41,865 nucleotides of DNA from an uncultured Dehalococcoidia bacterium (GTDB lineage Bacteria; Chloroflexota; Dehalococcoidia; SZUA-161; SpSt-899). The notes under the pieces were generated by a model. It was not told the DNA's origin, ran no database searches, and saw only the letters and a program-made list of their open reading frames with translations. This document shows, piece by piece, positions 3,017-41,799 of the stretch. Where the stretch lies: positions 1 to 41,865 of the forward strand of contig CBFDTP010000002.1 in assembly GCA_965612975.1 (NCBI GenBank), written 5' to 3'. Position numbers and translations under genes: made by a program. The stretch's first letter is position 1, and each line of letters starts with the position of its first letter.

Positions 3017-3062
3017 CGGCTACCTCCTGCTTGGGCTTTCTCAAGTTATCGCGCCAGACTGG

Positions 3063-4891: not shown

Positions 4892-4959
4892 AAGTCCTCC
4901 TAATTGAAGAATCCGCGTGATCGGCGACCAGGGGTCATGCCTTGAGAGCCTGAATCGGC

Positions 4960-7132: not shown

Positions 7133-7136
7133 AGCG

Positions 7137-7481
7137 ATGGAAAGTAGGGCTGAGGAACCACGTTACGCCATTGGGGTAGCGGCCAAGCTCATTGGCGTCC
7201 ACGCTCAGACCTTGAGGTATTACGAGCGAATGGGCGTGATCGAGCCAGCGCGCTCGCCGGGCAAGCAGCGACTTTATTCTCTCCAGGACATCGAGAGGCT
7301 GCGGCAGGTGAAGACGCTGATGAACGACCTGGGGGTTAATCTGGCCGGCGTGGACGTCATCCTGCGCTTAAAGCAGCGAATTGCCGAAATGGAGGAGCAG
7401 ATACGGCAGATGGAGGCCGAGATAAGGAGACTTCGGGCAGCCAGCGGCTTGGTGGAAATTCGCCGCGATTTTGAAGTTTAA
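7137..7481 (+). CDS. hspR: MerR-family heat-shock repressor, HspR-like
   Basis: MerR helix-turn-helix (YAIGVAAKLIGVHAQTLRYYERMGVIEP.R....RLYS..DIERL) plus a C-terminal coiled coil. It lies directly after the J-protein gene, as in cbpA-hspR operons. Confidence 0.8.
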   Translation: MESRAEEPRYAIGVAAKLIGVHAQTLRYYERMGVIEPARSPGKQRLYSLQDIERLRQVKTLMNDLGVNLAGVDVILRLKQRIAEMEEQIRQMEAEIRRLRAASGLVEIRRDFEV

Positions 7482-11239: not shown

Positions 11240-13168
11240 ATGGCGTTGAACCGGAAGATCGCTTACATTGATCTCTCCACGGGTAAAATTGAGACCCGTC
11301 CCATCCCCCTGGAGATGCGGAAGCTGTATCTCGGTGGCCGTGGTCTTGATATGTACCTGCTGTACAATCACGTTCAGCCGGGCATTGACCCCCTGGGGCC
11401 GGATAACGTGCTTTTGGTTAGCGCTGGAATTTTAGCCGGCACGCTGGCCTCAGCCACCGCCCGAACCCACATGGCCGCCAGGTCTCCACTGACCGGTTTT
11501 CTGGGCAGCACCAACATGGGAGGTTTCTTTGCCCCCGAGCTGCGATTCGCTGGCTTCGATCATCTGGTGATAAAGGGCAAGGCGGAGAAGCCCTCCTACC
11601 TCTGGATCCATAACGGTGAGATAGAGATAAGGGACGCCAGCCATCTTTGGGGTTTGACCACTCACGCCGCCCAGCAGGCCATCAGGAGGGAGCTTGGCGA
11701 TGAGGATGTTAAGATAGCCGTTATCGGTCCAGCGGGTGAGAACTTGGTGAGATTTGCCAACGTTATCACGGGCCTCAAGAATGCCGCTGGTAGAACTGGG
11801 CTGGGAGCGGTCTTTGGCTCCAAGAACCTTAAGGCCATAGCTGTCAGGGGGACTATGGACATAAAGATAGCCCACCCCGATGAGGCCCTGGAATACAACA
11901 AGAAGTTCATCTCCCACATCACCAGCTCCAAGGTGAATATCACTCAGGGCAAACTTGGCACTCCCTTCATCTGGGGGGCTACCAACTCCTGGGGTGGTAT
12001 AAGGACCAGGAACTTCCAGCTCAATCAGCTCGAGTACGCCGATGATGTCGAGCCCGAGAGGCTCGATGAGCTGGCCACCGAGACCTTCGGACCTTATCAT
12101 ATGGCAGGTTGTTTTGCCTGCCAGGTTCACTGCCGCGGCCGGTATCGGGTTCCCCCGGGTTATCCCCACGCTGGGGAATATGATGAGGGCCCGGAGTATA
12201 CCTCTCAGGGCGCCTTCGCCGGGGAGCCTGATTGCCGCAGCGGGGGCTTAATTCTGGAGTGCAACCATCTGGTAAATATGTGGGGTCTGGATAACTTGGA
12301 AACAGGTAGCCTCATCTCCTGGGCCATGGAGCTTTATGAGAAGGGAATCCTTACCAGTGAGGATACCGATGGCCTGGATCTGAGGTTTGGCAACGAGGAA
12401 GCGCTGATGGAGATGATTCGCCGCATCACCTTCCGAGAAGGGCTGGGTGACATCCTAGCCGAGGGAGGGCTTCGAGCGGCGGAGAAGATCGGCAAGGATG
12501 CGATCAAATACCTCATTCACGTTAAGGGGATGAGCAACCTGCACTCCGATGAGCGTGCTACCCCGGCCCTGGCCCTGGGCATAGCCACTGGCTCCCGGGG
12601 TTCGGACCACCTGAGGAGCCGACCGGCCATTGATCTCTACCACCTGCCGGAGCCCGTTCTCCGGAAGATCTACAGCAACCCGATCCCCTATGATGGGCCT
12701 CTAAGCTCGGATCATCGTGAGTATGTGGGGAAGCCCTGGCAGGTCTTCTGGCAGGAGATGTGTTATGAGGCGGTGGACTGCCTGGGCATCTGCAAGTATC
12801 ACACCACCTTCCTCGGAGCCACCCTGCCCAACTTTGAGGACTGGTCCAAGGTGCTTTACTTGAACACTGGACTGGAGATGTCTCCTTTGGACATTTGGAC
12901 CGTGGCCGAGCGAGCTTACAATTTAGAAAGGCTTTTCAATCTCAGAGAGGGCTTGAAGAGAGAGCATGATTGGTTGGTAGATCGCTACTTCGATGAGCCC
13001 TGCAAACTCGGAGCGCCCGGAGTTGTTGGGGCCAAGATAGATCGGGAGAAGTTCAAGAAGATGATCGATGAATACTATGAGTACCATGGCTGGGATGAGA
13101 ACGGAGTTCCTCGACCGGAGACCCTTGAAAGGCTGGGGTTGGATAAGGAACCATCCCATCGGCTCTAA
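11240..13168 (+). CDS. aor: Aldehyde:ferredoxin oxidoreductase family enzyme (tungstopterin / [4Fe-4S])
   Basis: The N-terminus (IAYIDLSTGKIE...YLGGRGL) and the domain 2/3 blocks, at ~640 aa, are typical of the AOR family. Confidence 0.9.
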   Translation: MALNRKIAYIDLSTGKIETRPIPLEMRKLYLGGRGLDMYLLYNHVQPGIDPLGPDNVLLVSAGILAGTLASATARTHMAARSPLTGFLGSTNMGGFFAPELRFAGFDHLVIKGKAEKPSYLWIHNGEIEIRDASHLWGLTTHAAQQAIRRELGDEDVKIAVIGPAGENLVRFANVITGLKNAAGRTGLGAVFGSKNLKAIAVRGTMDIKIAHPDEALEYNKKFISHITSSKVNITQGKLGTPFIWGATNSWGGIRTRNFQLNQLEYADDVEPERLDELATETFGPYHMAGCFACQVHCRGRYRVPPGYPHAGEYDEGPEYTSQGAFAGEPDCRSGGLILECNHLVNMWGLDNLETGSLISWAMELYEKGILTSEDTDGLDLRFGNEEALMEMIRRITFREGLGDILAEGGLRAAEKIGKDAIKYLIHVKGMSNLHSDERATPALALGIATGSRGSDHLRSRPAIDLYHLPEPVLRKIYSNPIPYDGPLSSDHREYVGKPWQVFWQEMCYEAVDCLGICKYHTTFLGATLPNFEDWSKVLYLNTGLEMSPLDIWTVAERAYNLERLFNLREGLKREHDWLVDRYFDEPCKLGAPGVVGAKIDREKFKKMIDEYYEYHGWDENGVPRPETLERLGLDKEPSHRL

Positions 13169-13192
13169 TTTCTGCTAGAGAGGAGGAAATAG

Positions 13193-13693
13193 ATGGCTAA
13201 GGTTCTGATGATCGACTATGAAAAATGCACCGGTTGCCGCCTGTGTGAGCTGGTGTGCTCGGTGAAGCATGAAGGGGTGTGCAACCCTTCCCGAAGTCGG
13301 ATAAAGATAGTCAAGTGGGAGTGGGAAGGCCGTTATGTGCCGATGACCTGCCAGCAGTGTGAGTCGGCCCCTTGCATGGCGGTCTGTCCGGTGAAGGCCA
13401 TCTCTCGCGATGAGGTATTGGGGCGGGTGGTGATTGATTATGATCAGTGCATCGGCTGCCGGATGTGCGTGGCCATCTGCCCCTTTGGTGGAATGAGCTT
13501 CGATAGCATAGGTAAAAGGGTCGTAAAGTGCGACCTGTGTGATGGTGACCCACAGTGTGTCCGCTTCTGTGAGGTGGGGGCGGTGCAGTACGTTGAAGCC
13601 GATCGGGTTAGCTTGATCAAGCAAAGAGCAGCAGCGGAGAGGTTCTCTGCTTTGCTACAAAAGGTCAGTGCAGCGATAGCAGCTGCTTTGTAA
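13193..13693 (+). CDS. 4Fe-4S polyferredoxin-like electron-transfer subunit (AorA/DmsB-like)
   Basis: Repeated CxxCxxCxxxC motifs (CTGCRLCELVC, CQQCESAPCMAVC, CIGCRMCVAIC, CDLCDG...C). It lies directly downstream of the AOR gene. Confidence 0.85.
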   Translation: MAKVLMIDYEKCTGCRLCELVCSVKHEGVCNPSRSRIKIVKWEWEGRYVPMTCQQCESAPCMAVCPVKAISRDEVLGRVVIDYDQCIGCRMCVAICPFGGMSFDSIGKRVVKCDLCDGDPQCVRFCEVGAVQYVEADRVSLIKQRAAAERFSALLQKVSAAIAAAL

Positions 13694-25203: not shown

Positions 25204-25821
25204 TTGTGTTTAAATTTTAAAGGGGTAGTTTTAACCGTGGAGGAACAGGTTCACGAGGATGTGTTGAAATTAAAGCAAGGCCTGGGCGAGCTTCCGGAGC
25301 CCATTGTTAAGCCTTTCCTCATCGTGATGAGCGGGCTTCCCGGGACGGGGAAGTCCTATTTTAGTCGGAAGTTAACCGAGAGGCTTTCCTGTGTCAGGCT
25401 GGAGAGCGATGAGCTGCGCAAGCTTCTCTTTCCCCGACCAACCTATGCAGCCGATGAGAATCAGCGTCTCTTCTCCGCCCTGCATCGGCTGACCGAAGAG
25501 CTGCTGCAGCGAAACATTCCGGTTTTGCTGGATGCCACCAACCTGATTGAGCGCCATCGGGAGCAGCTTTATCACATTGCCGAGAGGTTAGGGGCCAAGT
25601 TGATCCTGGTGCGGGTCGAAGCCCCACCGGAGGTGGTGCGACAAAGGCTCGAAGCTCGGATGTCCCGCACTGACCGGGAGGATAGCTCTGAGGCCGATTT
25701 CTCGGTTTATCAGCGAATGAGGCGGAGGGTTCAGCAAATCCGGCGGCGGCACTTCGTGGTGGATACCTCCCGGGATATCACCCCGGTGCTCGAGAAGATC
25801 GTCCGCGAGGTAAGGCGCTAA
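25204..25821 (+). CDS. P-loop kinase-like ATP-binding protein (AAA_33 / zeta-toxin-like fold)
   Basis: Walker A GLPGTGKSYF and a DATN motif. The start is uncertain, either TTG at 25204 or GTG at 25237. Confidence 0.6.
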   Translation: MCLNFKGVVLTVEEQVHEDVLKLKQGLGELPEPIVKPFLIVMSGLPGTGKSYFSRKLTERLSCVRLESDELRKLLFPRPTYAADENQRLFSALHRLTEELLQRNIPVLLDATNLIERHREQLYHIAERLGAKLILVRVEAPPEVVRQRLEARMSRTDREDSSEADFSVYQRMRRRVQQIRRRHFVVDTSRDITPVLEKIVREVRR

Positions 25822-25855
25822 ACTGCTTCTTTGAATGGGCCTGCCTAGGATGGAA

Positions 25856-26317
25856 TTAGCTGGAGGATCTCCCGCCCTCGACCACCTTGACCGGATCCCC
25901 CCTCTTTACCTCGCCCCCTGAGATCACCCGGGCGAACACCCCCTCCCGGGGCATGATGCACTTGCCCACCTGGCGAAAGATGGCACAGCCCGTATGACAT
26001 TCCTTCCCGATCTGGGTAATTTCCAGGATCACCCCTCGGCCAATCTGCAGCCTGGTCCCGGGGGGAAGGGAGAGGAGATCGAGGCCTTCTACGGTCAGAT
26101 TCTCGGCGAAGTCCCCCGGGCCCACCTCGAGTCCCAGGGCTCTCATTTTCTCCAGGCTGCTGGTCGAGAGGAGGCTTACCTGGCGAGGGATGCCCGGTGT
26201 GGCATGGGCATCACCCAGGAGCCCATAATTGGCCTGCAGGAAACCGGAGTCCCCCGGCTGCTTCCTCGTTCCCTTGTTCTTACTGGTATAGACGGCGATT
26301 ATTCGCCCCTTCATCAT
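25856..26317 (-). CDS. MOSC domain-containing protein (small stand-alone type)
   Basis: Typical ~150-aa MOSC sequence (GLLGDAHA...RQVSLL...GDFAENLTVEG...QIGKECHTGCAIF.QVG.CIMPREGVFARV). It has an ATGA overlap with the upstream larE-like gene. Confidence 0.85.
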   Translation of the reverse strand: MMKGRIIAVYTSKNKGTRKQPGDSGFLQANYGLLGDAHATPGIPRQVSLLSTSSLEKMRALGLEVGPGDFAENLTVEGLDLLSLPPGTRLQIGRGVILEITQIGKECHTGCAIFRQVGKCIMPREGVFARVISGGEVKRGDPVKVVEGGRSSS

Positions 26318-27111
26318 TTCAGCCTTCGGTTTAAGCTCCCTACTCGATAGCCCTCAAGGTCAAGGACAATATAAGCATACCCCAAATCCTTTAGCTTGGC
26401 CACGATCTCTTCTCGTCGGCGGAGTAACCGCTCCATGTCCTGGGGCTCAACCTCTATCCGGGCAACCTCTCGGTGATGCCTTACCCTGACCTGCCTTGGC
26501 CCCAGGGAGAGAAGAAATTCTTCCGCCCGATTTATCCTCTCCAGAATCTCCGTGGTTATTGGAATCCCGTAGGGAATTCTTGAGGCCAAACAGGCAAGGG
26601 AGGGCTTGTCCCAGTTGGGCAGGCCCAGTTCCTTGGAGAGGAGTCTTATTTCCTCCTTGGTGAGGCCCACCTCGAGGAGGGGGCTTCTCACCCCGGCCTC
26701 CACAGCGGCCCTTCGGCCCGGGCGGAAGTCATCTTGGTCGTCGAAATTGGTGCCGTCGAGCACCCAGCGCATACCCTCTCGCCGGGCTATTTCCCAAAGC
26801 TGCGCGAAGAGTTCTCGCTTGCACCAGTAGCAGCGGTCGGGGGAATTAGAGCGGAACTCTGGCTGGGAAAGCTCATCGGTGGGAAGGGGCAAGAGCCTTA
26901 CCCCAAGGCTCTCGGCGAGTTCTTGGGCAGCTAAGAACTCTCGCCGGGGGTAGGTGGGGGAAGTGGCGGTAACGGCGAGAACGCGCGATCCCAGCACCTC
27001 TCGCGCCACTCGAAGCAGGAAGGTGCTGTCCACCCCACCGGAGTAGGCGATGACCGCTGAGCCCATCTCGCGGAGCAGCCCTTTCAGGTTCTCCAGCTTC
27101 TCCCTCGCCAT
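26314..27111 (-). CDS. larE: LarE-family PP-loop ATP-dependent sulfur transferase (TIGR00268-like)
   Basis: PP-loop AYSGGVDST, then CYWCK (CxxC) and PSLACLASRIPYG motifs. The start ATG at 27111 lies 1 nt after the upstream stop. The track ORF extension to 27351 runs inside the upstream gene. Confidence 0.8.
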   Translation of the reverse strand: MAREKLENLKGLLREMGSAVIAYSGGVDSTFLLRVAREVLGSRVLAVTATSPTYPRREFLAAQELAESLGVRLLPLPTDELSQPEFRSNSPDRCYWCKRELFAQLWEIARREGMRWVLDGTNFDDQDDFRPGRRAAVEAGVRSPLLEVGLTKEEIRLLSKELGLPNWDKPSLACLASRIPYGIPITTEILERINRAEEFLLSLGPRQVRVRHHREVARIEVEPQDMERLLRRREEIVAKLKDLGYAYIVLDLEGYRVGSLNRRLK

Positions 27112-27112
27112 T

Positions 27113-28006
27113 TCAAACCCTCTCCAACACCCTTTGCTGTAGACGGCAGAAGCTGCAAATTTGAGTAGTGGTGAGATAACCACAATTCTCGCAGGGTTGG
27201 AGTTCGGGCTCCTCCTTAGCCACAAAGGCCAGTCGGCTTTTGAGAAATCCCTGGTAGAACCTGAGCTTGGTGCCAGGGGATTCTTGTTCCAGCCGGTTAA
27301 GAGCACTTTTGTAAAGCAGTGAGGTTGAGCCCTGAGAGTAAGGGCACTCATCGAGGATGTAATCTATCCCCCGGATCAGGGCATAGGCCGCCATCTCCCG
27401 TTCCGAGCACAGCACCAGGGGTTTAACCTTGCGCCGAAGGCTTTCCCGATCTGGAAGCGAAGGAGCTTGGCGAGCCAGGGCATCGGTTTGCCAGTTGAGC
27501 AGGTTCCCCAGAAGGAAGGAAACCTCATCATCGAGGTTATGACCAGTGGCGATGACGTCAAAGCATCTTCCAGACTGGTTCATGAGATAACGTTTCACCA
27601 GGCCGCACACTGAGCAGGAGGTTCTCTTCGCTCGGCGGGCGATCTCCGGGATGGCCAGTCCCCCGAAATAATCCTTAACCCGTTGGATGTGGAGTCTGGC
27701 TCCCTTCCTTTGGGCGAAGCTAACTGCCTTTTCCTCCGACTTCTGAGAGTACTCCCCTATTCCTAAATCTATGTACAACCCCTCAGCTTGGTAGCCAAGC
27801 TCCAGTAGCAGATCCCAAAGGCTTAGGCTATCCTTTCCTCCGGAGACCGCCACCAGCACCTTCTCACCCGGGGAAAGAAGGCGCAGGCTACCGATGGTCC
27901 GTCTCACCCTCCTTTGAAGGAAGGTAACGAAGCAGTTCTCGCAGAGGTTCAGATTATGGGCGGGAAGTTTTATAACTGCCCTCCCGTGACACATGCGGCA
28001 CTTCAT
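27113..28006 (-). CDS. ttuA: TtuA/Ncs6-type PP-loop tRNA 2-thiolation-like enzyme with N- and C-terminal zinc fingers
   Basis: N-terminal CRMC...CENC, PP-loop VAVSGGKDS, central CSVCG plus DECPY cysteines (Fe-S ligand pattern), and C-terminal CENCG...CSFC. Confidence 0.75.
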   Translation of the reverse strand: MKCRMCHGRAVIKLPAHNLNLCENCFVTFLQRRVRRTIGSLRLLSPGEKVLVAVSGGKDSLSLWDLLLELGYQAEGLYIDLGIGEYSQKSEEKAVSFAQRKGARLHIQRVKDYFGGLAIPEIARRAKRTSCSVCGLVKRYLMNQSGRCFDVIATGHNLDDEVSFLLGNLLNWQTDALARQAPSLPDRESLRRKVKPLVLCSEREMAAYALIRGIDYILDECPYSQGSTSLLYKSALNRLEQESPGTKLRFYQGFLKSRLAFVAKEEPELQPCENCGYLTTTQICSFCRLQQRVLERV

Positions 28007-28207
28007 CTAACCTCCTGAGATAACCGGCCTTATCTCAATCTCCCCCTCCACCAGTTCATCCGGGGGAACCAGTCTGTTCCCTTGAATGACCAAAACCTCC
28101 TCCGGGTTGAGGTTCAGCTTCTGTAATACCTTCTCCGCGCGGAGCCTCCCCTCAAATTCATAAACCTTCCCCAGGTAGCTCACCCTTACCGTGGAGGAAT
28201 GCTCCAT
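28007..28207 (-). CDS. ThiS/MoaD/TtuB-like ubiquitin-fold sulfur carrier ending in Gly-Gly
   Basis: A 66-aa beta-grasp-sized protein ending ...IRPVISGG. The ATG at 28207 is preceded by AGGAGG with a 5-nt spacer. Its stop directly abuts the ttuA-like ATG. Confidence 0.75.
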   Translation of the reverse strand: MEHSSTVRVSYLGKVYEFEGRLRAEKVLQKLNLNPEEVLVIQGNRLVPPDELVEGEIEIRPVISGG

Positions 28208-28316
28208 TGGCACCTCCTAACCTTGCTGGCCGGATTTCTCTAGGTATTTCTCGGGGTTCTCCTCAAACTGAATTCCCGGAACCTCTAGGTCTCCAGCTAC
28301 CCGTCGGTGAGCGAGC

Positions 28317-29480
28317 CTATTTCTGTCGGAGGAAGGGCGACATGGCCCGCAGCCGGGCTACGGCCCGGGGCAAAGCTTCCAGCACCTGCTCGATATCCTC
28401 CTCGGTAGTCCACCGGCCCAGGGTTATCCTCAGCGAGCTCAGGGCCTTCTCCGGCGGCAGGCCCATGGCCAGGAGCACGTGGGAGGGAGCCAGGCTGGTG
28501 GAGCTACAGGCCGAGCCGGTGGAGACGCAGATGCTCTCGAGGTCAAGGCTAAGCATCAGGGATTCCCCCTCGATGAACTCGAAGCTCAGGTTGGCGTTGT
28601 TGGGGAGTCGCTGGATGGGGTGGCCATTAAGCCAGGCCCGCTCAACCGAGGAGAGAACCCCGGTGATGAGGCGATCCCGGAGTGAGGCCAGGCGTTTCGC
28701 CTCCTCTTCCATCTCCCCTTCGGCTATCTCCGCCGCCTTGCCGAAACCGACGATCCCCGGCACATTCTCGGTGCCGGCGCGGTGGCCTGACTCCTGCTCC
28801 CCACCGTGGGCTAGTGGGACAAGCCTGGTTCCCTTTCGAATGTACAGGGCTCCTATCCCCTTCGGCCCATACAATTTATGCGCTGAGGCTGAAAGAAGAT
28901 CCACCCCGAGTTCTTCAACATCCACCGGAATATGCCCCACCGCTTGAACGGCATCGGTGTGGAAGTACACCTCGGCCTCCCGGGCAATCTTCCCGATCTC
29001 GGCGAGGGGCTCAATGGTGCCCACCTCGTTGTTGGCCAGCATTATGGAGATGAGCATCGTCTTGGGAGTGAGAGCTTTCCTGACATTGCCCGGATCCACC
29101 AGTCCCTGACCATCAACTGGAAGGTAGGTTATCTCAAAACCGCTCTCCTCCAGAAACTTGCAGGTTTCCAGCACGGAGTGATGTTCGATGGGCGTAGTAA
29201 TAATGTGATTCCCTCTATTCTGGTTGGCCAAGGCCACCCCTTTAATGGCCAGGTTGTTGGCCTCAGTTCCCCCACTGGTGAAGAAGATCTCTTGCGGGCG
29301 GGCGCCGATGAGGTGGGCCACTTTCTCTCGGGCCTCTTCCACGGCCAGGCTTGCCTCCTGACCCAGGGAATGCACGCTCGACGGATTGCCGAAGTTCTCC
29401 GTGAAGTAAGGCAGCATAGCCTGCACCACCTCAGGATGGGTCGGTGTAGTAGCAGCGTAGTCCAGATAAATTCTCCTCAT
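28317..29480 (-). CDS. Cysteine desulfurase, NifS/IscS (group I) type
   Basis: IYLDYAATTP, the PLP lysine in SASAHKLYGPKG, and the active-site loop STGSACSS. Confidence 0.92.
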   Translation of the reverse strand: MRRIYLDYAATTPTHPEVVQAMLPYFTENFGNPSSVHSLGQEASLAVEEAREKVAHLIGARPQEIFFTSGGTEANNLAIKGVALANQNRGNHIITTPIEHHSVLETCKFLEESGFEITYLPVDGQGLVDPGNVRKALTPKTMLISIMLANNEVGTIEPLAEIGKIAREAEVYFHTDAVQAVGHIPVDVEELGVDLLSASAHKLYGPKGIGALYIRKGTRLVPLAHGGEQESGHRAGTENVPGIVGFGKAAEIAEGEMEEEAKRLASLRDRLITGVLSSVERAWLNGHPIQRLPNNANLSFEFIEGESLMLSLDLESICVSTGSACSSTSLAPSHVLLAMGLPPEKALSSLRITLGRWTTEEDIEQVLEALPRAVARLRAMSPFLRQK

Positions 29481-29597
29481 GGAAGACCTCAGCGCATGGT
29501 ATGGTTTATTGGCCTTTCCTTAAGCGGTTTAAAGGGTTATGCCAGACTCGGCCCTGGGCAGCGGAGCTGCCGGTTCGGTCAGCAGAAACTTGCCCCC

Positions 29598-30389
29598 TCA
29601 ATGCTTCTCCCGAACTTCGGCGGTGACTAACTCACGAGCCAACTCGGCCGCCTTTCGGCCGGAGAGGAGCATCCCCCCAAAGATGGCCCCCATCCGGGGT
29701 GAGCCGAAGACCGCATTGGCGGCCATGCCGGCGACTAGTAGTCCGGGGTAAACCTCTCGGGTATTCTCGAGTATTTCACCTTCCCCCCGCTCCGCCCACA
29801 TAGGCTTTTCTCCGATGACCTCTCCCGTCTTCGTCCGCAGCACCGGCCCCAGCTTTCTAGCCACCAGGCGGCAAACTTCCGCATCGTGTCCGGTGGCATC
29901 AATCACCACCTTGCATCTGGTGGCTAGAGGGTCAACATGGAGTTTTGACCAGGCCACCGCGCTCCAGTTCAGAACCAGCCCAGCAATCCGATTCTCCCGA
30001 ATCACCACATCTTCTACGTCAATGAGGTTAAAAACCCGAGCCCCGGCCTTTATGGTCTTGGAGCACATGGTGGAAATGGTCTCCAAGGAATCGGCTACGA
30101 AATACTCGCCCTGATACTTCACGCTCGACACATCGAATTCATCAAGTATTTCCTTCCCTTCTTCTTGGACCACGATGCGGCTCATCATCATGGCACCTCC
30201 CGGCATTCCCCCACCGATGCGAAGTTGTCTTTCAAAAACCACCGTCTTTATCCCCTCCCTGGCCAAGCAATACGCCGCGGTCAACCCCGATGGTCCGGCA
30301 CCGACCACGGCCACATCGGCCACCAGGGAGTCGAGGAAATCCCTGAGGTAATTTTCGGTGATCGCTCGCGAGATTAGCGTCTCATCCAT
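29598..30389 (-). CDS. thi4: Thi4-family thiazole synthase (archaeal/bacterial His-type, ADP-thiazole synthase)
   Basis: DVAVVGAGPSGL dinucleotide fold, GGGMPGGAM, and VIDATGHDAEV (His where yeast THI4 has the sacrificial Cys). The ATG at 30389 is preceded by AAAGGAG. ATG at 30404 is an alternative start. Confidence 0.85.
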   Translation of the reverse strand: MDETLISRAITENYLRDFLDSLVADVAVVGAGPSGLTAAYCLAREGIKTVVFERQLRIGGGMPGGAMMMSRIVVQEEGKEILDEFDVSSVKYQGEYFVADSLETISTMCSKTIKAGARVFNLIDVEDVVIRENRIAGLVLNWSAVAWSKLHVDPLATRCKVVIDATGHDAEVCRLVARKLGPVLRTKTGEVIGEKPMWAERGEGEILENTREVYPGLLVAGMAANAVFGSPRMGAIFGGMLLSGRKAAELARELVTAEVREKH

Positions 30390-30475
30390 ACCTTCTCCTT
30401 TCATCCTTTCACCGGTTTCTTTAAAATCCAGCGAGCCCAATTGCTGCGGGGCCCAATTGTCCCGCTTTAGCTGGC

Positions 30476-30919
30476 TTAGATATAGTAGGTGAGTGCCGAA
30501 GTCTGCTCCTTCCTTCGTTGCATTTCCATCAGATCCTGGAGGGTTTTTGAGGCCAAGGCCTGAGTGATGAGGGAGGAGAGTTCCCCCCACAGGTCATGAG
30601 TGGCACAAACCTCCACCCGCGGGCAGACCTTTGGGTCTGCTACGCATTCCACCAGGTTGATTTGACCCTCAAGGGCTTGGACAACCTCGCTCAGCCTTAT
30701 CTCAGCGGGGGATTTTGCCAACACAAAGCCTCCCTGTACCCCCCGGATGCTGCGCACCAGCCCAGCTGCCTTGAGCTGGATGAGAATTTGCTCCAGGTAG
30801 TTCCGGGTAACCCCCTGCCTTTGAACGATATCTCGAAGCAGGACCGGCCCCTCCCCGCTGTGCTGGGCGATGTCCACCAGGGCTCGCATGCCATATCTTG
30901 CCTTGGTGGATAATTTCAT
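30476..30919 (-). CDS. Rrf2 family transcriptional regulator (IscR-like, three-Cys cluster motif)
   Basis: MKLSTKARYGMRALVDIA...LEQIL..L..AGLV.S.RG..GG, then C-x5-C-x5-C-x2-H (CVADPKVCPRVEVCATH), resembling the IscR Fe-S ligands. Confidence 0.88.
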   Translation of the reverse strand: MKLSTKARYGMRALVDIAQHSGEGPVLLRDIVQRQGVTRNYLEQILIQLKAAGLVRSIRGVQGGFVLAKSPAEIRLSEVVQALEGQINLVECVADPKVCPRVEVCATHDLWGELSSLITQALASKTLQDLMEMQRRKEQTSALTYYI

Positions 30920-30994
30920 CTCTTGTCTACTAAGTTTATCATTTAGTTACCCAGAGGGGAAGAGGTACAATTCAGCCCCCTCCGAACCTGTGGA

Positions 30995-31144
30995 TTAGGG
31001 GCATTCTTCCGCCAGTTTCCTCAGGCCACCAACCTCACGCAGCACGATCTGCCGACTGTAGCGCCTGATCTGCTGCCTTACCCAGGCAATGCCGCGCTCG
31101 ATCTCCTCTTCCTCAGCCGAGGCAGCCTCAGTCCGCGAAACCAA
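30995..31144 (-). pseudogene. Truncated ThiF/MoeB (E1-like) N-terminal fragment, ~49 codons, stops before the Rossmann GxGxxG
   Basis: My own minus-strand translation gives (TTG)VSRTEAASAEEEEIERGIAWVRQQIRRYSRQIVLREVGGLRKLAEECP*. RYSRQI.L...G is the hallmark start of ThiF/MoeB/HesA proteins. Compare RYARQLLFPPLGEEGQKRLK in the intact MoeB at 33186-33947. Confidence 0.45.
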
Positions 31145-31218
31145 ACCTTTGAATTCTTAACTGAATTTATCATCTTTATGTACTACAGCGTAGCGAGAAA
31201 TAACCTGTCAAGTCTCGT

Positions 31219-32136
31219 TCAGGTGGCTTGGAGCATTTTATCCACGGCCACCTTGGCTCGAAGGCGGATTCCCTCTGGTACTTTCACCTCGGGGGACATC
31301 TCCCTGAGGGAGAAGAGCACCTTCTCCAGGGTGATGAGCTTCATGTTGGGGCAGATGGCCCTCTCCTGGGCCGGGAAGAACTCTTTCCCCGGGTTTTCCT
31401 TTTTCAGGCGGTGAATTATGCCTATCTCCGTGCCCACGATCAGCTCTCGGCTCTCGGTCTTCTGGGCGAAGCGGATCATGCCGCCGGTGCTGAGAACTTC
31501 ATCGGCCAGCTCGATCACCCCAGGCCGACACTCGGGGTGGACGATCACCTTGGCCCCAGGGTGTTTTTCCCTCATCTGGAGGATGTCCTCCCGCCTTATC
31601 CGAACGTGGGTGGGACAGAAGCCAGGCCAGAGGATGAGGCTCCGACCAGTTCTGGTGGCGACGAAATGGCCCAGGTACTGATCCGGCACAAAGAGAATGC
31701 TGTCTTGGCCTGGAAGCTGACTTACGATCCGGGCAGCGTTGGCTGAGGTGCAGCAGATGTCAGCTTCGGCTTTCACCTCGGCGGTGGAGTTGACATAACA
31801 GACCACAGTTGCCTCAGGATGCTCTCTCTTCTCCTGGCGCAGGGATTCGGCGGTGATCATGTCGGCCATGGGGCAGCCGGCGTTTGGGTCAGGGAGAAGC
31901 ACCACCTTGTCGGGACAGAGGATAGAGGCTGTCTCGGCCATGAAGCGAACTCCACAGAAGACGATCACCTCAGCATCGGTCTGGGCTGCCCTTTGGCTGA
32001 GCTCCAGGGAATCGCCGACGAAATCGGCGATATCTTGGATTTCCGGCCGCTGGTAGTTATGGGCCAGGATGACTGCCCGCCTTTGCTCCTTAAGCTGTAG
32101 GATCTGGTCTATGATCTTCTGATCCGGGGAGGCCAT
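31219..32136 (-). CDS. nadA: Quinolinate synthase NadA
   Basis: AVILAHNYQRPEIQDIADFVGDSLELS, VFCGVRFMAE, and HPEC blocks, ~305 aa. Confidence 0.92.
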   Translation of the reverse strand: MASPDQKIIDQILQLKEQRRAVILAHNYQRPEIQDIADFVGDSLELSQRAAQTDAEVIVFCGVRFMAETASILCPDKVVLLPDPNAGCPMADMITAESLRQEKREHPEATVVCYVNSTAEVKAEADICCTSANAARIVSQLPGQDSILFVPDQYLGHFVATRTGRSLILWPGFCPTHVRIRREDILQMREKHPGAKVIVHPECRPGVIELADEVLSTGGMIRFAQKTESRELIVGTEIGIIHRLKKENPGKEFFPAQERAICPNMKLITLEKVLFSLREMSPEVKVPEGIRLRAKVAVDKMLQAT

Positions 32137-32920
32137 TAACTACCCTCCATTCGTTGGCGTAAATGTTGAACTTCTTGCCCCTTACAAAGGCAATGAGGGT
32201 GACCCCCAGCTCGCTGGCCAGCTTTACTGCTAGGTCGGTAGGGGCGGAAATCGAGATGATGATCGGAATCCGCCCCTTGGCTGCCTTAAGCAGCATCTCC
32301 GAGGAAATCCTCCCACTGGAGAGCAAGATCTTATCCTCGGTGGGAATCTCCTCAAGCAGGCATTGGCCGAAGATCTTGTCGACGGCATTGTGTCGGCCGA
32401 TGTCCTCACTGAAGGCCAGGATCTTACGTGTATCTGAAAGGGCGGCGCCATGAACACCGTGGGTGGCTAGATAGATCTCGGACAGCCGCTGAAATTCCTT
32501 GGTGAGTTCCAACACCGCCTCAGGCGATATGTTCACCTCCGTCTCAATGCGGGCTACGTTCTGGGCATCGATGGCATGATAGAAGCTGGCTCCTCGTCCG
32601 CAACCCGAGGTTATGAATCGCCTGAAAAGGAAATCCGGGGCAAGTTCGAGTGCTTGAACGGTCTCCACTCGGGCTATGCCGCGGCGCTCGTCAAGCAGGA
32701 CCTTCTTCAGCTCGGCCTTGTCTTTCACCAACCCCTCGGAGAACAGGAAGCCAACGGCGAGATACCTGAGCTTTGTGGGGGAGCAGAGCAAGGTCACCAG
32801 TTCTTGATTGTTCAGCACGATCGTAAAGGGAAACTCCCGGGCAACCAGATCCTCTACCTCACCCCTCTGCCCTTCCCGGATGCGCAGCAAGGTTAGCTTA
32901 GTCGTCCCCTCCACTTTCAA
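32090..32920 (-). CDS. fdhD: FdhD-family sulfurtransferase (formate dehydrogenase accessory protein homologue)
   Basis: EFPFTIVLNN, FLFSEG, TSGCG, EDIGRHNAVDK, and SGRISSEM...KA....IPII.SISAPT. It has a TTG start in a TTGA overlap with the moaD-like stop. Its 3' end overlaps the nadA start by 47 nt. Confidence 0.85.
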   Translation of the reverse strand: MKVEGTTKLTLLRIREGQRGEVEDLVAREFPFTIVLNNQELVTLLCSPTKLRYLAVGFLFSEGLVKDKAELKKVLLDERRGIARVETVQALELAPDFLFRRFITSGCGRGASFYHAIDAQNVARIETEVNISPEAVLELTKEFQRLSEIYLATHGVHGAALSDTRKILAFSEDIGRHNAVDKIFGQCLLEEIPTEDKILLSSGRISSEMLLKAAKGRIPIIISISAPTDLAVKLASELGVTLIAFVRGKKFNIYANEWRVVNGLPGSEDHRPDPTA

Positions 32921-33189
32921 CCTCCAGCAGCCATGAACAGGATGGTAACTTCATCCCCATCGTTCACCGGATAATTCAGCTCCTCCGGATAGGTGGTATG
33001 CTCGTTGATGTAGATCTCGATGTAGCCATGCAGCTGCCCTTGCTTATCAAAAAGCTGTGACTTCAGGCCAGGAAAGCGAGCTTCTAGGGAATCGAGACAC
33101 TGGCCCACATTCTTGCCCTCAACCTCCACTATCTCCTGTCCCCCGGTGAGATGGAGAAGAAAGGGATGTATCCGAACCTTAACGCTCAT
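32917..33189 (-). CDS. MoaD/ThiS-family ubiquitin-fold sulfur carrier ending in Gly-Gly
   Basis: 90 aa, ending ...VTILFMAAGG. The ATG at 33189 forms an ATGA overlap with the moeB stop. The track start at 33213 lies inside moeB. Confidence 0.8.
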   Translation of the reverse strand: MSVKVRIHPFLLHLTGGQEIVEVEGKNVGQCLDSLEARFPGLKSQLFDKQGQLHGYIEIYINEHTTYPEELNYPVNDGDEVTILFMAAGG

Positions 33190-33947
33190 CTTGCTCCTCC
33201 GCAGATAGGGCATTTCGGATTTTTCTGCAGTTCCACGAAGGAAAAATCCATCGTTTCGCCGTTTATGTACAGCATTCGTCCGGTCAATAGCTTCCCGAAT
33301 CCGGCGAGAAGCTTTATGGCCTCCATCACCTGGAGGGAGGCTATGAGAGCCGGGGTGACCCCCAGCACTGGAAAAGGACGCCTGGCTTCAGGAGGGTGAG
33401 GGAAAAGGCATTGCAGGCAAGGGGTTTGGCCGGGGATAATGGTGGTTATTTGTCCCATTAGGCCATCAATGCCCCCATGGATGAAGGGAATTCCCTCCCG
33501 GCAGCACCCCTCATTCAGGATAAACCTGGTTTTCATGTTGTCCAAGCCATCTATCACTAGGTCAGCCCCCTGGATGAGCTGCCTCACGTTTTCCGGCGTT
33601 ATTCTCTCGGCGAGGGGGGTTAAATTCACCTTTGAATTCAGTCGGGCAAGTTTGCGGCTGGCGGAAAACACCTTTTCCTTCGCCACGTCTTCCTCCCAGT
33701 GCAGGATCTGGCGGTTAAGGTTGGAGAGTTCAACTCGGTCCGCGTCCACCAGGGTCAGATGGCCTACGCCGGCGCAGGCGAGATAAATTGCTGCGGGGCA
33801 ACCCAGCCCACCGAGCCCGGCGATCACCACATGAGCGCGCTTCAGCCTCTTTTGTCCCTCCTCCCCAAGGGGAGGGAAAAGAAGCTGGCGAGCATATCGC
33901 ACGCGCTCCTCCTCGGTGAGGTTGGGGTTCCGCTTCCGGCGACGCAT
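33186..33947 (-). CDS. moeB: ThiF/MoeB/HesA-family E1-like adenylyltransferase
   Basis: RYARQL, GLGGLGCPAA Rossmann motif, and two CxxC pairs (CLQC and CPIC), ~250 aa. Confidence 0.9.
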   Translation of the reverse strand: MRRRKRNPNLTEEERVRYARQLLFPPLGEEGQKRLKRAHVVIAGLGGLGCPAAIYLACAGVGHLTLVDADRVELSNLNRQILHWEEDVAKEKVFSASRKLARLNSKVNLTPLAERITPENVRQLIQGADLVIDGLDNMKTRFILNEGCCREGIPFIHGGIDGLMGQITTIIPGQTPCLQCLFPHPPEARRPFPVLGVTPALIASLQVMEAIKLLAGFGKLLTGRMLYINGETMDFSFVELQKNPKCPICGGAR

Positions 33948-33962
33948 TTTAGGTACCTCCCT

Positions 33963-33991
33963 ATTTTAGCCAATGGGTAGCGAATAAACAA
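33963..33991 (-). promoter_or_regulatory. Candidate promoter for the moeB operon (TTGTTT-17-TAAAAT on the minus strand)
   Basis: The reverse complement of 33986-33991 is TTGTTT, followed by a 17-nt spacer, and the reverse complement of 33963-33968 is TAAAAT. Confidence 0.35.
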
Positions 33992-34024
33992 TAACGCGGT
34001 GGGTCAGGGCTGCTCATTGGGCTG

Positions 34025-40734: not shown

Positions 40735-41799
40735 ATGGACGTAGGCCTGGGGAAGGAAGGTTACGGAATGTGGCGTGTTCTGGACGCTAATTTTAATCGC
40801 CTGGGCGAGGCGCTGCGCGTTCTGGAGGATATTTCCCGCTTCATCTTGGAGGAGAAGGATTTAACCGAAAGGTTTAGGCTCCTGCGCCACGGGCTTACTC
40901 CTCGTGATCCTTTCCTCAAGGCAAAGTTCCTCCATGCTCGGGATTCGGCCGGTGATGTGGGGAGAGGAGCGGAGAGGTCAGAGCGGAGGGATGAGGTGGC
41001 TGTGGCTTTGGCCAATGCTCGCCGGGTTCAGGAATCCCTTCGCGTGATCGAAGAGCTGAGCAAACTCCCTGAGGTATCCCCTCATCTGGATCAAGACAAG
41101 TTCAGCCAGGCCAGGTTCACCTTTTATGAGCTGGAGAAGGAGCTTTTTTCCCGGCTTCAGCGACGGCAAAAGCGCGAGAGGATAAGGGGCCTCTACCTCA
41201 TCCTCGACTGTCAGGCGGCGCGGGGGCGCGACGAGGTCAAGCTGGCCCGGCAGGCAATCCTGGGCGGTGTTAGGCTGATTCAGCTTCGCGACAAGGAGCG
41301 CTCCTCGGCTGAGCTTCTCCCGCTGGCCCGCAAGCTGCAGCAACTCTGTGCTGAGTCCTCTGTCCTTTTCCTGGTGAACGACCGAGTGGATTTGGCCTTG
41401 GGAGCCGAGGCCGATGGAGTCCACCTGGGGCCGGATGATTTTCCGGTCCAAGAGGCCAGAAAGCTCCTTCCCTGGGATAAGCTCATTGGCTGTTCGGTGA
41501 AAACCCTGGCCCAGGCCCGCCGAGCTGCGGAGGAGGGGGCAGACTATGTGAGCGTGGGCTCCATCTATCCCTCGCCCACCAAGCCTCAGGCGAAGGTGGT
41601 TGGTCTGGACCTCCTGCGGCAGACTCGAGGTGAACTCTCCCTTCCCCTGGTAGCCATAGGGGGCATAGGGCCGGAGAGGGTGGCCGAGGTTCTTACGGCT
41701 GGCGCCGATGCGGTGGCGGTGGTCAGCGCCGTGCTGCAGGCCGAGGATGTCACCACAGCGGTTCGAGAGCTGGTACAGAAAATAGAGGAGGCAAGTTGA
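40735..41799 (+). CDS. thiE: Thiamine-phosphate synthase ThiE with a ~140-aa N-terminal extension domain
   Basis: The C-terminal ~210 aa is a canonical ThiE TIM barrel (LYLILD..., IQLRDK, FLVNDRVDLAL...ADGVHLG.DD, GCS, ADY...G.I..S.TK, PLVAIGGI). The N-terminal region starts VLDANFNRLGEALRVLEDISRF. The start is either 40735 or 40768. Confidence 0.88.
   Translation: MDVGLGKEGYGMWRVLDANFNRLGEALRVLEDISRFILEEKDLTERFRLLRHGLTPRDPFLKAKFLHARDSAGDVGRGAERSERRDEVAVALANARRVQESLRVIEELSKLPEVSPHLDQDKFSQARFTFYELEKELFSRLQRRQKRERIRGLYLILDCQAARGRDEVKLARQAILGGVRLIQLRDKERSSAELLPLARKLQQLCAESSVLFLVNDRVDLALGAEADGVHLGPDDFPVQEARKLLPWDKLIGCSVKTLAQARRAAEEGADYVSVGSIYPSPTKPQAKVVGLDLLRQTRGELSLPLVAIGGIGPERVAEVLTAGADAVAVVSAVLQAEDVTTAVRELVQKIEEAS

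Follow-up and report, generated by a model that had tools for sequence, protein, structure and literature searches.

Sulfur-handling genes grouped with a cysteine desulfurase probably form a lineage-specific mosaic in a Chloroflexota bacterium

Results

Gene content and layout of the locus

We analyzed a 41.9-kb stretch of DNA (the window) from an uncultured Chloroflexota bacterium. Between positions 25856 and 30919, seven co-directional open reading frames on the minus strand encode an Rrf2-family regulator, a sulfide-type Thi4, NifS, a small carrier ending in GG, TtuA, LarE, and a MOSC-domain protein, in the order given in a preliminary description of this DNA. That description began the sulfur cluster at the Rrf2 gene, but the co-directional string extends upstream through four more genes (31219-33947). 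The features are as follows, with the matches on which each assignment is based in parentheses.

33186-33947, minus strand: MoeB/ThiF-type E1 adenylyltransferase, 253 aa, without a rhodanese domain (NCBIfam MoeB/ThiF/UbaA models)
32917-33213, minus strand: MoaD/SAMP1-like carrier, 98 aa, C-terminal AAGG (Pfam ThiS PF02597, TIGR01687)
32090-32920, minus strand: FdhD, sulfurtransferase for the Mo/W-bisPGD cofactor (TIGR00129, 200.6 bits; cut-off 140.9)
31219-32136, minus strand: quinolinate synthase NadA, a [4Fe-4S] enzyme (NF006878, 449 bits; cut-off 294)
30995-31155, minus strand: non-coding spacer upstream of Rrf2, probable gene remnant (three-frame translation)
30929-30947, minus strand: ACTAA-N9-TTAGT inverted repeat, a candidate operator shortly before the Rrf2 start (read from the sequence)
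30476-30919, minus strand: Rrf2-family regulator with a C-x6-C-x5-C-x2-H cluster-ligand motif (PF02082, TIGR00738)
29598-30389, minus strand: sulfide-dependent (non-sacrificial) ADP-thiazole synthase Thi4 (TIGR00292, 318 bits; cut-off 148)
28317-29480, minus strand: NifS-type class I cysteine desulfurase (TIGR03402, 583.7 bits; cut-off 530.75)
28007-28207, minus strand: TtuB-like sulfur carrier, 66 aa, ending in GG (best solved relative, TtuB 5ztb_E)
27113-28006, minus strand: TtuA, [4Fe-4S] tRNA 2-thiouridine (m5s2U54) synthetase (TtuA_LIM_N and PP-loop, structure-sequence matches)
26314-27111, minus strand: LarE, [4Fe-4S]-type sulfurtransferase for pyridinium-3,5-biscarboxylate mononucleotide (P2CMN) (TIGR00268)
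25856-26317, minus strand: stand-alone MOSC-domain protein, 153 aa (PF03473, 47.8 bits; cut-off 22.7)

Direct reading bore out the junctions described earlier: the carrier stop codon TAG (28009-28007) abuts the TtuA ATG (28006), 1 nt lies between the TtuA stop (27113) and the LarE ATG (27111), and the end of the LarE gene overlaps the beginning of the MOSC gene in an ATGA (26317-26314). With the starts used in that description (Thi4 ATG at 30389, carrier ATG at 28207), the remaining gaps measure 86 nt (Rrf2/Thi4), 117 nt (Thi4/NifS), and 109 nt (NifS/carrier), matching its range of 86-117 nt. Tight junctions are not confined to the last four genes: the MoeB/MoaD, MoaD/FdhD, and FdhD/NadA genes overlap as well. 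The gaps between the seven genes contain neither terminator-like sites nor Rfam matches nor RNA folds of unusual stability; the layout is operon-like, as had been proposed, and the locus may be co-transcribed. Since no IscU/NifU scaffold is encoded in the window, the locus does not explain the cluster supply of its Fe-S clients.

The genes belong to characterized families

All previous family assignments held in family-model searches, and by these scores the membership of the locus proteins in their families lies far beyond chance. The Rrf2 protein scored 134 bits with PF02082 and 141 bits with TIGR00738 (cut-off 73) and remained under the cut-offs of the IscR and CymR equivalog models. The preliminary description of an IscR-like Rrf2 protein was right about the family, while the spacing it gave, C-x5-C-x5-C-x2-H, needs correcting to the one listed above. 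The regulator presumably controls the locus. Half-sites resembling ACTAA/TTAGT also precede the Rrf2 gene of L113. The spacer contains a frame without ATG reading ...RRYSRQIVLREVGGL..., which resembles a ThiF/MoeB N-terminus when compared by eye with that of the MoeB of the locus, RYARQLLFPPLGEEGQ.

The MoeB/ThiF protein scored 221-274 bits with the NCBIfam models, under the equivalog cut-off in every case, and its 90% cluster includes a member titled 'MAG: adenylyltransferase [Chloroflexi bacterium]'; it is a candidate TtuC-like activator of GG carriers. Its neighbor, the MoaD/SAMP1-like carrier, matched Pfam ThiS with 38.3 bits (cut-off 22.5) and fell narrowly below the TIGR01687 cut-off of 49.5 with 47.7 bits. 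NadA acts on the route to nicotinate nucleotides. The best solved relatives of Thi4 are 7rk0 (269 bits) and 4y4n, and the protein has ATGHD at the active-site position.

TtuA aligned over its full length with Thermus thermophilus TtuA (5gha/5b4e; 300 bits) and scored 269 bits with Pyrococcus horikoshii TtuA. The alignments include its PP-loop (SGGKDS), the cysteines of the cluster motif CxxC...C, and both zinc fingers, and Pfam TtuA_LIM_N matched. For the 66-aa carrier, TtuB (5ztb_E, E = 4e-4) was the best solved relative, followed by PF1061 and SAMP2, and Pfam SAMP2 scored 24.4 bits, under its cut-off of 27. Of 22 distant TtuA loci, 13 have a small homologue of the carrier gene immediately upstream of TtuA. 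Judged from these alignments, the tRNA-thiolation pair TtuA/TtuB of Thermus has its orthologues in the TtuA and carrier proteins of the locus. U54 thiolation of the m5s2U54 type is typical of thermophiles. The TtuA/TtuB/TtuC pathway has been described (PMC8584467).

LarE scored 344.7 bits with TIGR00268 (cut-off 150) and 187 bits with Lactobacillus plantarum LarE, and retains all catalytic and P2CMN-phosphate-binding Ser/Arg residues. The third cysteine of its CxxC..C motif is shifted by one residue, as in Thermotoga maritima LarE (PMC9283937). In vitro, [4Fe-4S] LarE receives sulfur from IscS (PMC9283937). Neither TtuA nor LarE falls into the TilS or QueC families, the placement that the preliminary description had named as one that would count against it. 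Its suggestion that TtuA, LarE, and MOSC build an unknown thio-cofactor is disfavored by the full-length match to Thermus TtuA, the closeness of the carrier to TtuB, the residues kept in LarE, and the mixing of this LarE with LarB/LarC-linked LarEs in a tree (see below).

In PRK14499, a MoaC/MOSC fusion model, it is the C-terminal half that the MOSC protein matches, and the protein carries an invariant C107-H108-x2-C111-x8-C120. The top Foldseek matches of its AF2 model (pLDDT 83) were YuaD (1oru, TM 0.79), YiiM, and mARC1.

LarE and MOSC form a recurrent pair

The 4-nt overlap between the LarE and MOSC genes is repeated in L081 and L121 and, at a greater distance, in L118 (LarE 64% identical), and a 428-aa protein (P0005, 8 member sequences) is a single-polypeptide LarE::MOSC fusion that aligns to both proteins. 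In other phyla, MOSC lies <1 kb from LarE in L013 and L054. A role of MOSC in molybdenum cofactor (Moco) metabolism alone does not predict these overlaps or the fusion. The recurrent pair, in one case fused, is the single fresh lead from the locus.

We considered whether LarE and MOSC are a dedicated two-protein sulfur insertase, in which the invariant Cys/His motif of MOSC takes persulfide or sulfide from NifS and hands it to the open iron of the LarE [4Fe-4S] cluster, the pair being an accessory module behind any sulfur operon. This would parallel the eukaryotic Moco sulfurase, in which a NifS domain hands over to a MOSC domain within one protein. In addition to the overlaps, the fusion, and the proximity in other phyla, the joint loss of both genes in strain L117 fits this idea, and catalytic LarE has no established sulfur donor in vivo (PMC9283937). 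However, MOSC was near LarE in just 2 of 80 LarE loci of other species (P about 0.02 in a rough model), and the best 150 matches among 1.84 billion representative proteins contained no second fusion. Four MOSC relatives (69-71% identical) adjoin FdhD or NadA, with NifS-IscU, MnmA, Thi4, Rrf2, and CysK/CysE nearby and no LarE within 6 kb. Stop codons interrupt the MOSC frame of L111, where LarE is intact, the window MOSC has Tyr in place of the Cys10 found in at least 90% of homologues, and the AF2 model of the fusion does not pack the domains confidently (pTM 0.70, linker pLDDT <50). On balance we regard a dedicated insertase as a tentative and rather unlikely proposal. In Dehalogenimonas, another Chloroflexota genus, a MOSC gene lies within a Moco/fdhD cluster (PMC13390414).

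Modules are gained and lost between close strains

The exact seven-gene order was found only in two strains from other samples, L087 and L121, which are 99-100% identical. The L121 sequence, from a hydrothermal vent metagenome (99.0% over 7045 bp), has a 329-bp insertion after MOSC that encodes a third GG carrier. Strain L117 (~91% DNA identity, syntenic flanks) keeps FdhD-NadA-Thi4-carrier-TtuA, and four clean gene-sized indels remove MoeB-MoaD, Rrf2 together with its upstream spacer, NifS, and LarE-MOSC; its Thi4 and carrier genes overlap in an ATGA. In L081 (~89-92% identity), carrier-TtuA-LarE-MOSC follows a P-type ATPase/YHS gene where the window has NifS, and Rrf2-Thi4-NifS is missing. 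The locus thus consists of separable modules, [MoeB-MoaD], [FdhD-NadA], [Rrf2], [Thi4], [NifS], [TtuB-TtuA], and [LarE-MOSC]. Near-identical strains differ by the gain or loss of these modules as whole genes.

The carrier-TtuA-LarE-MOSC core occurs only in the narrow lineage of the window (L081, L088/L111, L087, and L121; TtuA/LarE 74-100% identical). It is absent at 22 TtuA loci (~50% identity), none of which has LarE or MOSC around TtuA, and at 80 LarE loci of other species, none of which has TtuA within 5 kb. The coherent, conserved module envisaged in the preliminary description did not survive this comparison, which that description had itself named as a way to refute it, whereas its general idea of a desulfurase grouped with several sulfur-inserting clients holds.

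These distributions also bear on the idea that all seven genes belong to a single obligate operon for sulfur distribution under common regulation, with Rrf2 balancing how much sulfur each of the three inserting enzymes receives via the desulfurase, carrier, and MOSC that they share. The operon-like layout, the full string in L087 and L121, and the Rrf2 genes heading comparable sulfur islands in L113, L082, and L013 would agree with it. The gene losses in L117 and L081 and the separation of TtuA from LarE and MOSC in the wider survey argue against it, as does Thi4, since the sulfide-type enzyme (so named by TIGR00292) requires neither carrier nor persulfide relay. An obligate operon therefore appears improbable.

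LarE genes lie in two kinds of neighborhood

We surveyed neighbors within 5 kb of LarE at the 80 loci, each from a different species. LarB/LarC were nearby in 22 and sulfur-supply genes in 21, and no locus had both. Rrf2 (9 loci), CysK (9), MnmA (8), NifS (7), and NadA (6) each far exceeded a rough random expectation of 0.2-0.7, hence co-location of sulfur genes with LarE in other genomes is strongly enriched. MnmA directly adjoins LarE in L002, L040, L050, L075, L082, and L119, an uncharacterized PP-loop protein of 333 aa is encoded next to LarE in 7 loci, and fusions of LarE with RNase H-like domains exist. That TtuA, LarE, and MOSC are tightly coupled and that a tRNA 2-thiouridylase recurs directly beside LarE could point to a functional tie closer than a shared sulfur supply.

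In the tree, LarEs from the two contexts are interleaved, and the window clade is sister to Chloroflexota LarEs that adjoin LarB/LarC (L001, L004, and L009). The Fe-S ligands and the P2CMN-phosphate-binding Ser/Arg are invariant in every context. It is very improbable that LarE of the sulfur islands is not a nickel-pincer enzyme and instead makes a new thio-compound from nucleic acid or an unknown carboxylate, together with a tRNA thiouridylase (TtuA here, MnmA elsewhere) and MOSC: its neighbors, its fusions, and the lack of LarB/LarC in all sulfur-context loci would fit, but the tree and the invariant residues speak against it, and LarB/LarC may be encoded elsewhere in those genomes. LarA, LarB, and LarC are absent from the window and every relative's contig, and for this reason the nickel-pincer role of the window LarE is unproven for this genome.

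Discussion

Overall, we think that the locus is probably a 'sulfur island', a mosaic specific to its lineage in which a cysteine desulfurase is combined with client enzymes, in a Chloroflexota bacterium found in hydrothermal samples. Known sulfur-handling enzymes are grouped here in a loose mosaic and not in a new fixed pathway, because near-identical strains lack some of the genes. Each gene product most likely acts as its characterized orthologue does. The NifS gene would thus stand among genes for enzymes that consume mobilized sulfur or need Fe-S clusters, with a cluster-binding Rrf2 regulator at the head. NifS would convert cysteine to a persulfide and presumably feed each client. The MoeB/ThiF E1, encoded 5 kb upstream, would adenylate the small GG carrier (TtuB) for thiocarboxylation, and TtuA with its [4Fe-4S] cluster would move the TtuB sulfur to tRNA U54. 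Thi4 would form the thiamin thiazole from sulfide. LarE, with its own [4Fe-4S] cluster, would convert both P2CMN carboxylates to thiocarboxylates on the way to the nickel-pincer cofactor, with LarB and LarC presumably encoded at other sites of the genome. MOSC, FdhD, and MoeB/MoaD might serve sulfuration of the pterin (Mo/W) cofactor, which is the least certain assignment. Dedicated pairs of desulfurase and client genes are known (PMC5372745), and the grouping seen here is comparable to one of them, the yrvO-mnmA pairing of Bacillus.

Gene content and junctions of the sulfur cluster

All seven co-directional minus-strand ORFs of the preliminary description (Rrf2, Thi4, NifS, a GG carrier, TtuA, LarE and MOSC) were found, and their junctions were as described. 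The carrier TAG (28009-28007) lies directly before the TtuA ATG (28006), a single nucleotide separates the TtuA TGA, which ends at 27113, from the LarE ATG, which begins at 27111, and LarE ends and MOSC begins within one shared ATGA at 26317-26314. The remaining gaps measure 86, 117 and 109 nt, given the Shine-Dalgarno-backed starts of Thi4 (30389) and the carrier (28207). The seven-gene layout thus stood, but the cluster does not start at Rrf2, as four same-strand genes with overlapping junctions extend it upstream (31219-33947, in the order of transcription):

33186-33947, minus strand, MoeB/ThiF-type E1
32917-33213, minus strand, MoaD/SAMP1-like GG protein
32090-32920, minus strand, FdhD
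31219-32136, minus strand, NadA

Overlaps also join these upstream genes, so the close spacing seen from the carrier to MOSC is no special property of that part of the string. The 299-nt spacer between NadA and Rrf2 holds a candidate gene remnant (approximately 30995-31155, minus strand), an ATG-less frame that ends in ...IERGIAWVRQQIRRYSRQIVLREVGGLRKLAEECP and a stop and resembles the N-terminus of ThiF/MoeB. Such an apparent remnant upstream of Rrf2 is consistent with past rearrangement.

The gaps and the leader gave no sign of additional control elements. Rfam families (E up to 1) yielded nothing but one spurious lncRNA match, none of the three gaps or the leader had an unusually stable RNA fold (z = -0.33, +0.97, -0.18 and -0.15), and a riboswitch or attenuator in these regions was rejected by the Rfam search and RNA folding. 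Promoter- and terminator-like sites showed no excess over shuffled sequence, no minus-strand site fell within a gap, and direct and inverted repeats within 25700-31300 were limited to chance-like matches.

Assignment of the encoded proteins

Model searches upheld the family assignments. Thi4 matched the sulfide-dependent equivalog TIGR00292 (318.4 bits against 148.3) and NifS matched TIGR03402 (583.7 bits, cut-off 530.75). The structures nearest to Thi4 are the catalytic bacterial and archaeal proteins 7rk0 and 4y4n, and ATGHD at its active site aligns with the 7rk0 motif; in sulfide-dependent Thi4, His replaces the sacrificial Cys. The Rrf2 regulator was recognised by the superfamily model (141 bits against 73), but its motif is C-x6-C-x5-C-x2-H and not C-x5-C-x5-C-x2-H as first read. 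It scored 126.8 bits with the IscR model TIGR02010 (cut-off 207.55) and 105.5 with NF008110 (275), and lies below the IscR and CymR equivalog cut-offs, which leaves it as a member of the Rrf2 superfamily. An ACTAA-N9-TTAGT repeat is located just 5' of its start, and the protein probably senses cluster status and controls at least its own promoter.

TtuA aligned with Thermus thermophilus TtuA (5gha/5b4e) at 300.5 bits, residues 1-296 matching 1-298, and with the Pyrococcus horikoshii protein at 269 bits. The PP-loop SGGKDS, the three Cys ligands of the [4Fe-4S] cluster and the N- and C-terminal zinc fingers align with those of Thermus TtuA, and Pfam TtuA_LIM_N and ATP_bind_3 both match. The NF049949 equivalog, which is narrow and covers archaeal Pyrococcus-type TtuA, was missed (300.9 bits against 450), the Thermus protein being the nearer relative. 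On these alignments, we regard the window protein as an orthologue of Thermus TtuA. Neither of the two PP-loop proteins of the string, TtuA and LarE, belongs to TilS or QueC.

The GG carrier has 66 aa and ends in SGG. Its top solved match is TtuB, albeit a weak one (E = 4e-4, 23.8 bits), and it scored 24.4 bits with Pfam SAMP2, under the cut-off of 27. Among 22 metagenomic loci with a TtuA 47-51% identical to that of the window, 13 have a homologous small carrier gene just 5' of TtuA and 2 contain NifS, whereas LarE and MOSC are missing from all 22 neighbourhoods. The TtuA-TtuB-TtuC pathway leads to m5s2U54 in tRNA and has been reviewed (PMC8584467). The TtuB-like carrier is likely to be activated by the upstream E1, a member of whose 90% cluster is annotated as a Chloroflexi MAG protein.

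The remainder of the window encodes housekeeping functions, an aldehyde:ferredoxin oxidoreductase and a ThiD2-ThiE fusion; IscU was not found within the window. Three loci outside the cluster are relevant to its setting:

11240-13693, plus strand, aldehyde:ferredoxin oxidoreductase (tungstopterin family), followed by a 4Fe-4S ferredoxin
40735-41799, plus strand, ThiD2-ThiE fusion (thiamine phosphate synthase)
2498-4891, minus strand, adjacent AMMECR1, Memo-like and radical-SAM genes, presumably the conserved 'AmmeMemoRadiSam' trio

The oxidoreductase is a likely user of the pterin cofactor for which MoeB, MoaD and FdhD work. ThiD2-ThiE lies 10 kb from Thi4, so the genes for thiamin are dispersed and not gathered in a single operon.

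Close strains carry a mosaic of modules

Close relatives of the window locus differ by whole genes. Two of them, L087 (100% identical) and L121 (99.0% over 7045 bp), have the same gene string. L121 carries in addition a 329-bp insertion right after MOSC (its positions 7045-7373, between window positions 25840 and 25841), which encodes a 107-aa ThiS-family protein with a C-terminal AGG that would be the third GG carrier of the island. L121 was recovered from the metagenome of a hydrothermal vent, an origin that fits a thermophile-type tRNA modification.

A third relative, L117, shares about 91% DNA identity with window positions 25822-34024 and is syntenic on both flanks. Of the 8-kb cluster it has FdhD-NadA-Thi4-carrier-TtuA only and lacks MoeB-MoaD, Rrf2 with the 299-nt spacer, NifS, and LarE-MOSC, which the alignment shows as four clean gaps, each of gene size. 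In L117 an ATGA overlap joins Thi4 to the carrier, and a spacer of about 60 nt that contains a hairpin precedes TtuA. L081 (~89-92%) has carrier-TtuA-LarE-MOSC with a P-type ATPase and a YHS gene upstream, while L088/L111 (74-78% protein identity) keep carrier-TtuA-LarE and have a MOSC frame with stop codons. Across the close strains TtuB-TtuA is the constant pair, the two genes LarE and MOSC behave together as an accessory module, and Rrf2 and NifS are confined, among the close strains compared, to the strain group of the window itself.

The close strains thus show a mosaic and not a unit. The order carrier-TtuA-LarE-MOSC, put forward earlier as a conserved core, was absent from 80 LarE loci and 22 TtuA loci elsewhere and is lost in the ~91% identical L117; it persists only among relatives whose proteins are 74% identical or more (L081, L088/L111, L087 and L121). 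The parts and layout of the proposed sulfur-distribution operon stand, but a conserved coordinated module is not supported, since close strains lose modules and wider surveys lack the order. Near-identical strains that differ by whole-gene modules amount to natural 'knock-outs' with which dependencies among the parts could be probed.

LarE occurs in two alternative gene neighbourhoods

LarE scored above its equivalog cut-off (TIGR00268, 344.7 bits against 150, 259 of 259 model positions). The protein contains SGGVDS, CYWC and ACLASR, with the Cys shifted by one residue relative to C176 of Lactobacillus plantarum LarE, and conserves the substrate-phosphate S and R-x-R. A CxxC..C arrangement with this one-residue shift marks the catalytic [4Fe-4S] type of LarE from Thermotoga maritima, to whose cluster IscS provides sulfur in vitro (PMC9283937). 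No LarB or LarC homologue was present in the window or in related contigs (42 kb of genome covered), and LarA is absent from the window. In a published survey, LarC and LarB were gene neighbours of LarE in ~54% and ~47% of cases, respectively (PMC13082051).

We analyzed the genes within 5 kb of LarE in 80 loci from different species (LarE 48-62% identical), using verified LarB, LarC and MnmA query sequences.

Gene neighbourhoods of LarE in 80 loci (within 5 kb)
LarB or LarC: 22/80
At least one sulfur-supply gene: 21/80
LarB/LarC together with a sulfur-supply gene: 0/80
Neither LarB/LarC nor a sulfur-supply gene: 37/80

The sulfur-supply genes were Rrf2 (9 loci), CysK (9), MnmA (8), NifS (7) and NadA (6); MOSC (2), Thi4 (1) and TtuA (0) were rarer. 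A rough random model would give 0.2-0.7 per family, which the sulfur-gene counts far exceed. MnmA adjoins LarE in four of the loci (L002, L040, L050 and L075) and in two closer relatives (L082 and L119). The mutually exclusive neighbourhoods support cysteine desulfurase as the sulfur source in vivo, hitherto shown only in vitro.

In a neighbour-joining tree, LarE proteins of both contexts were interleaved, and the window clade was sister to Chloroflexota LarEs flanked by LarB/LarC. The catalytic and substrate-phosphate residues are invariant across all contexts. A separate subfamily of sulfur-context LarE was therefore rejected, and the simplest reading of tree and residues is a single LarE function with two alternative genomic homes. 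The proposal that the locus might build an unknown thio-cofactor instead was judged unlikely. If the favoured reading of the locus as a strain-specific mosaic of known enzymes is right, it holds little new chemistry; each of its enzymes has a characterised orthologue.

Two further associations of LarE were seen. In 7 of the 80 loci, LarE has a PP-loop protein of ~333 aa at a distance of 16-220 nt (for example, L016 1328-2329, with homologues adjoining LarE in L020, L032, L057, L064 and L071). This protein has only weak matches, to the N-terminal domains of ThiI and MnmA. Six of ten long LarE homologues checked in the representative library (P0243, P0257, P0266, P0332, P0334 and P0385) are fused at either end to an RNase H-like domain (Pfam RVT_3/RNase_H).

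MOSC and its pairing with LarE

The MOSC protein matched PF03473 (47.8 bits against 22.7) and the MOSC portion of a model for MoaC/MOSC fusions. A sequence search of the PDB gave only spurious polyubiquitin matches; Foldseek placed the predicted fold close to YuaD (1oru, TM 0.79), YiiM and mARC1. C107, C111 and C120 are invariant among 25 homologues. Residue 10 (26288-26290) is Tyr in the window and Cys (AVCxS) in at least 90% of these homologues. Together with the decayed MOSC frame of L111 and the absence of the gene from L117, this change may indicate relaxed selection on MOSC in the window lineage.

LarE and MOSC overlap by 4 nt in the window, in L081 and L121, and in the more distant L118, and the two genes are near each other in L013 (order MOSC-CutA-LarE) and L054. 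One true LarE::MOSC fusion (P0005) was found, in locus L082, where it lies 3' of Rrf2-Nfu-MnmA and is followed by CutA. No further fusion was present in the best 150 matches of P0005 against 1.84 billion representative proteins, the rank range expected to hold two-domain matches of this kind; the long matches that were checked have an RNase H-like, LarB, LarC or zinc-ribbon domain as fusion partner. An AF2 model of P0005 gave no confident packing of the two domains (pTM 0.70, linker pLDDT <50). Four MOSC relatives with 69-71% identity adjoin FdhD (overlapping it in L114 and L116) or NadA (L113 and L115), near NifS-IscU, MnmA, Thi4, Rrf2 and CysK/CysE and with LarE absent nearby. A literature search, incomplete in coverage, for LarE with MOSC, LarE with MnmA and MOSC with FdhD returned no description except a Dehalogenimonas MOSC gene drawn within a Moco/fdhD cluster (PMC13390414).

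The recurrence of LarE-MOSC and the rare fusion offer a concrete hypothesis for the function of the MOSC protein. We consider it conceivable, if rather improbable, that MOSC is a physiological partner of the catalytic [4Fe-4S] LarE, shuttling persulfide or sulfide from NifS to the LarE cluster. As a partner of LarE, MOSC may act in some lineages with CutA or an extra ThiS-like carrier. If this were true, a stand-alone bacterial MOSC would gain its first defined role outside molybdenum enzymes, and an in vivo sulfur donor would be named for nickel-pincer cofactor synthesis. The idea that MOSC is itself the new nickel-pincer enzyme family was rejected, as that family is an aldo-keto reductase family (PMC13524815).

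Two unrelated loci have a CutA1 gene directly beside LarE and MOSC: in L082 it follows the LarE::MOSC fusion (3434-3685), and in L013 it separates MOSC from LarE (4609-4929). In L081, L083 and L088, genes for copper-type P-type ATPases or YHS proteins adjoin LarE or the carrier.

Proposed sulfur flow and comparison with known systems

From the gene identities, junctions and comparative patterns observed, we infer co-transcription, regulation and every step of the following sulfur flow. NifS would generate persulfide sulfur. The upstream E1 would adenylate TtuB, and the resulting thiocarboxylate would pass sulfur to the [4Fe-4S] cluster of TtuA for thiolation of U54, as in the reviewed pathway (PMC8584467). 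Thi4 would use sulfide, and NadA would be an Fe-S client. LarE would receive sulfur on its cluster and make the dithiocarboxylate precursor of the nickel-pincer cofactor, on the condition that the genome encodes LarB and LarC at another site. The sulfur chemistry of pterin cofactors would fall to FdhD, MoeB/MoaD and, probably, MOSC. The value of the locus lies in the two-neighbourhood pattern of LarE, the strain-level modularity and the LarE-MOSC hypothesis.

The window shares with the TtuA-TtuB-TtuC(-TtuD) system of Thermus a full-length TtuA, a TtuB-like carrier immediately upstream, a MoeB/ThiF E1 and a cysteine desulfurase. It differs in that no protein or domain of the rhodanese (TtuD-like) kind was seen, the E1 being a bare protein of 253 aa, and in that LarE and MOSC are translationally coupled after TtuA. 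As in an iscRSUA-type operon, an Rrf2 regulator with cluster ligands lies upstream of a class I desulfurase; however, IscU, IscA, HscBA and ferredoxin are lacking from the string, the IscR models were missed and six residues, not five, separate the first two Cys.

Among Gram-positive bacteria, cymR lies upstream of yrvO, and nifS beside nadBCA. An Rrf2-family regulator upstream is thus common to the window and to these systems, but that of the window has a Cys3-His cluster motif, which to our knowledge CymR lacks. The window likewise encodes a class I desulfurase with clients, as do the dedicated pairs yrvO-mnmA and nifZ-thiI of B. subtilis (PMC5372745), but it gathers several clients in one string, its set varies between strains, and its thiolase is TtuA with a thiocarboxylate carrier in place of MnmA. 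Transfer RNA thiolation, thiamin and NAD (NadA) are classic IscS-dependent processes (PMC5372745; works cited in PMC9283937).

The grouping of NifS, FdhD and MOSC in one cluster recalls Moco sulfuration by FdhD with IscS or by Moco sulfurase. In the eukaryotic Moco sulfurase, one polypeptide joins a NifS-like domain to a C-terminal domain that contains MOSC, whereas the window proteins are separate and MOSC is coupled to LarE, not to FdhD. Unlike in the FdhD/IscS system, no formate dehydrogenase is encoded in the window, the sole pterin enzyme seen being the aldehyde:ferredoxin oxidoreductase (11240-13168). With the larBCE genes, the window shares the LarE equivalog, SGGxDS, CxxC..C and the phosphate-binding residues, but its LarE sits in a sulfur-supply neighbourhood without LarB, LarC or LarA in the window. 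Overall, the window joins known systems, namely TtuABC, desulfurase-client pairs, larBCE and the logic of FdhD/IscS and NifS-MOSC, in one strain-specific string, and thus does not represent a new system.
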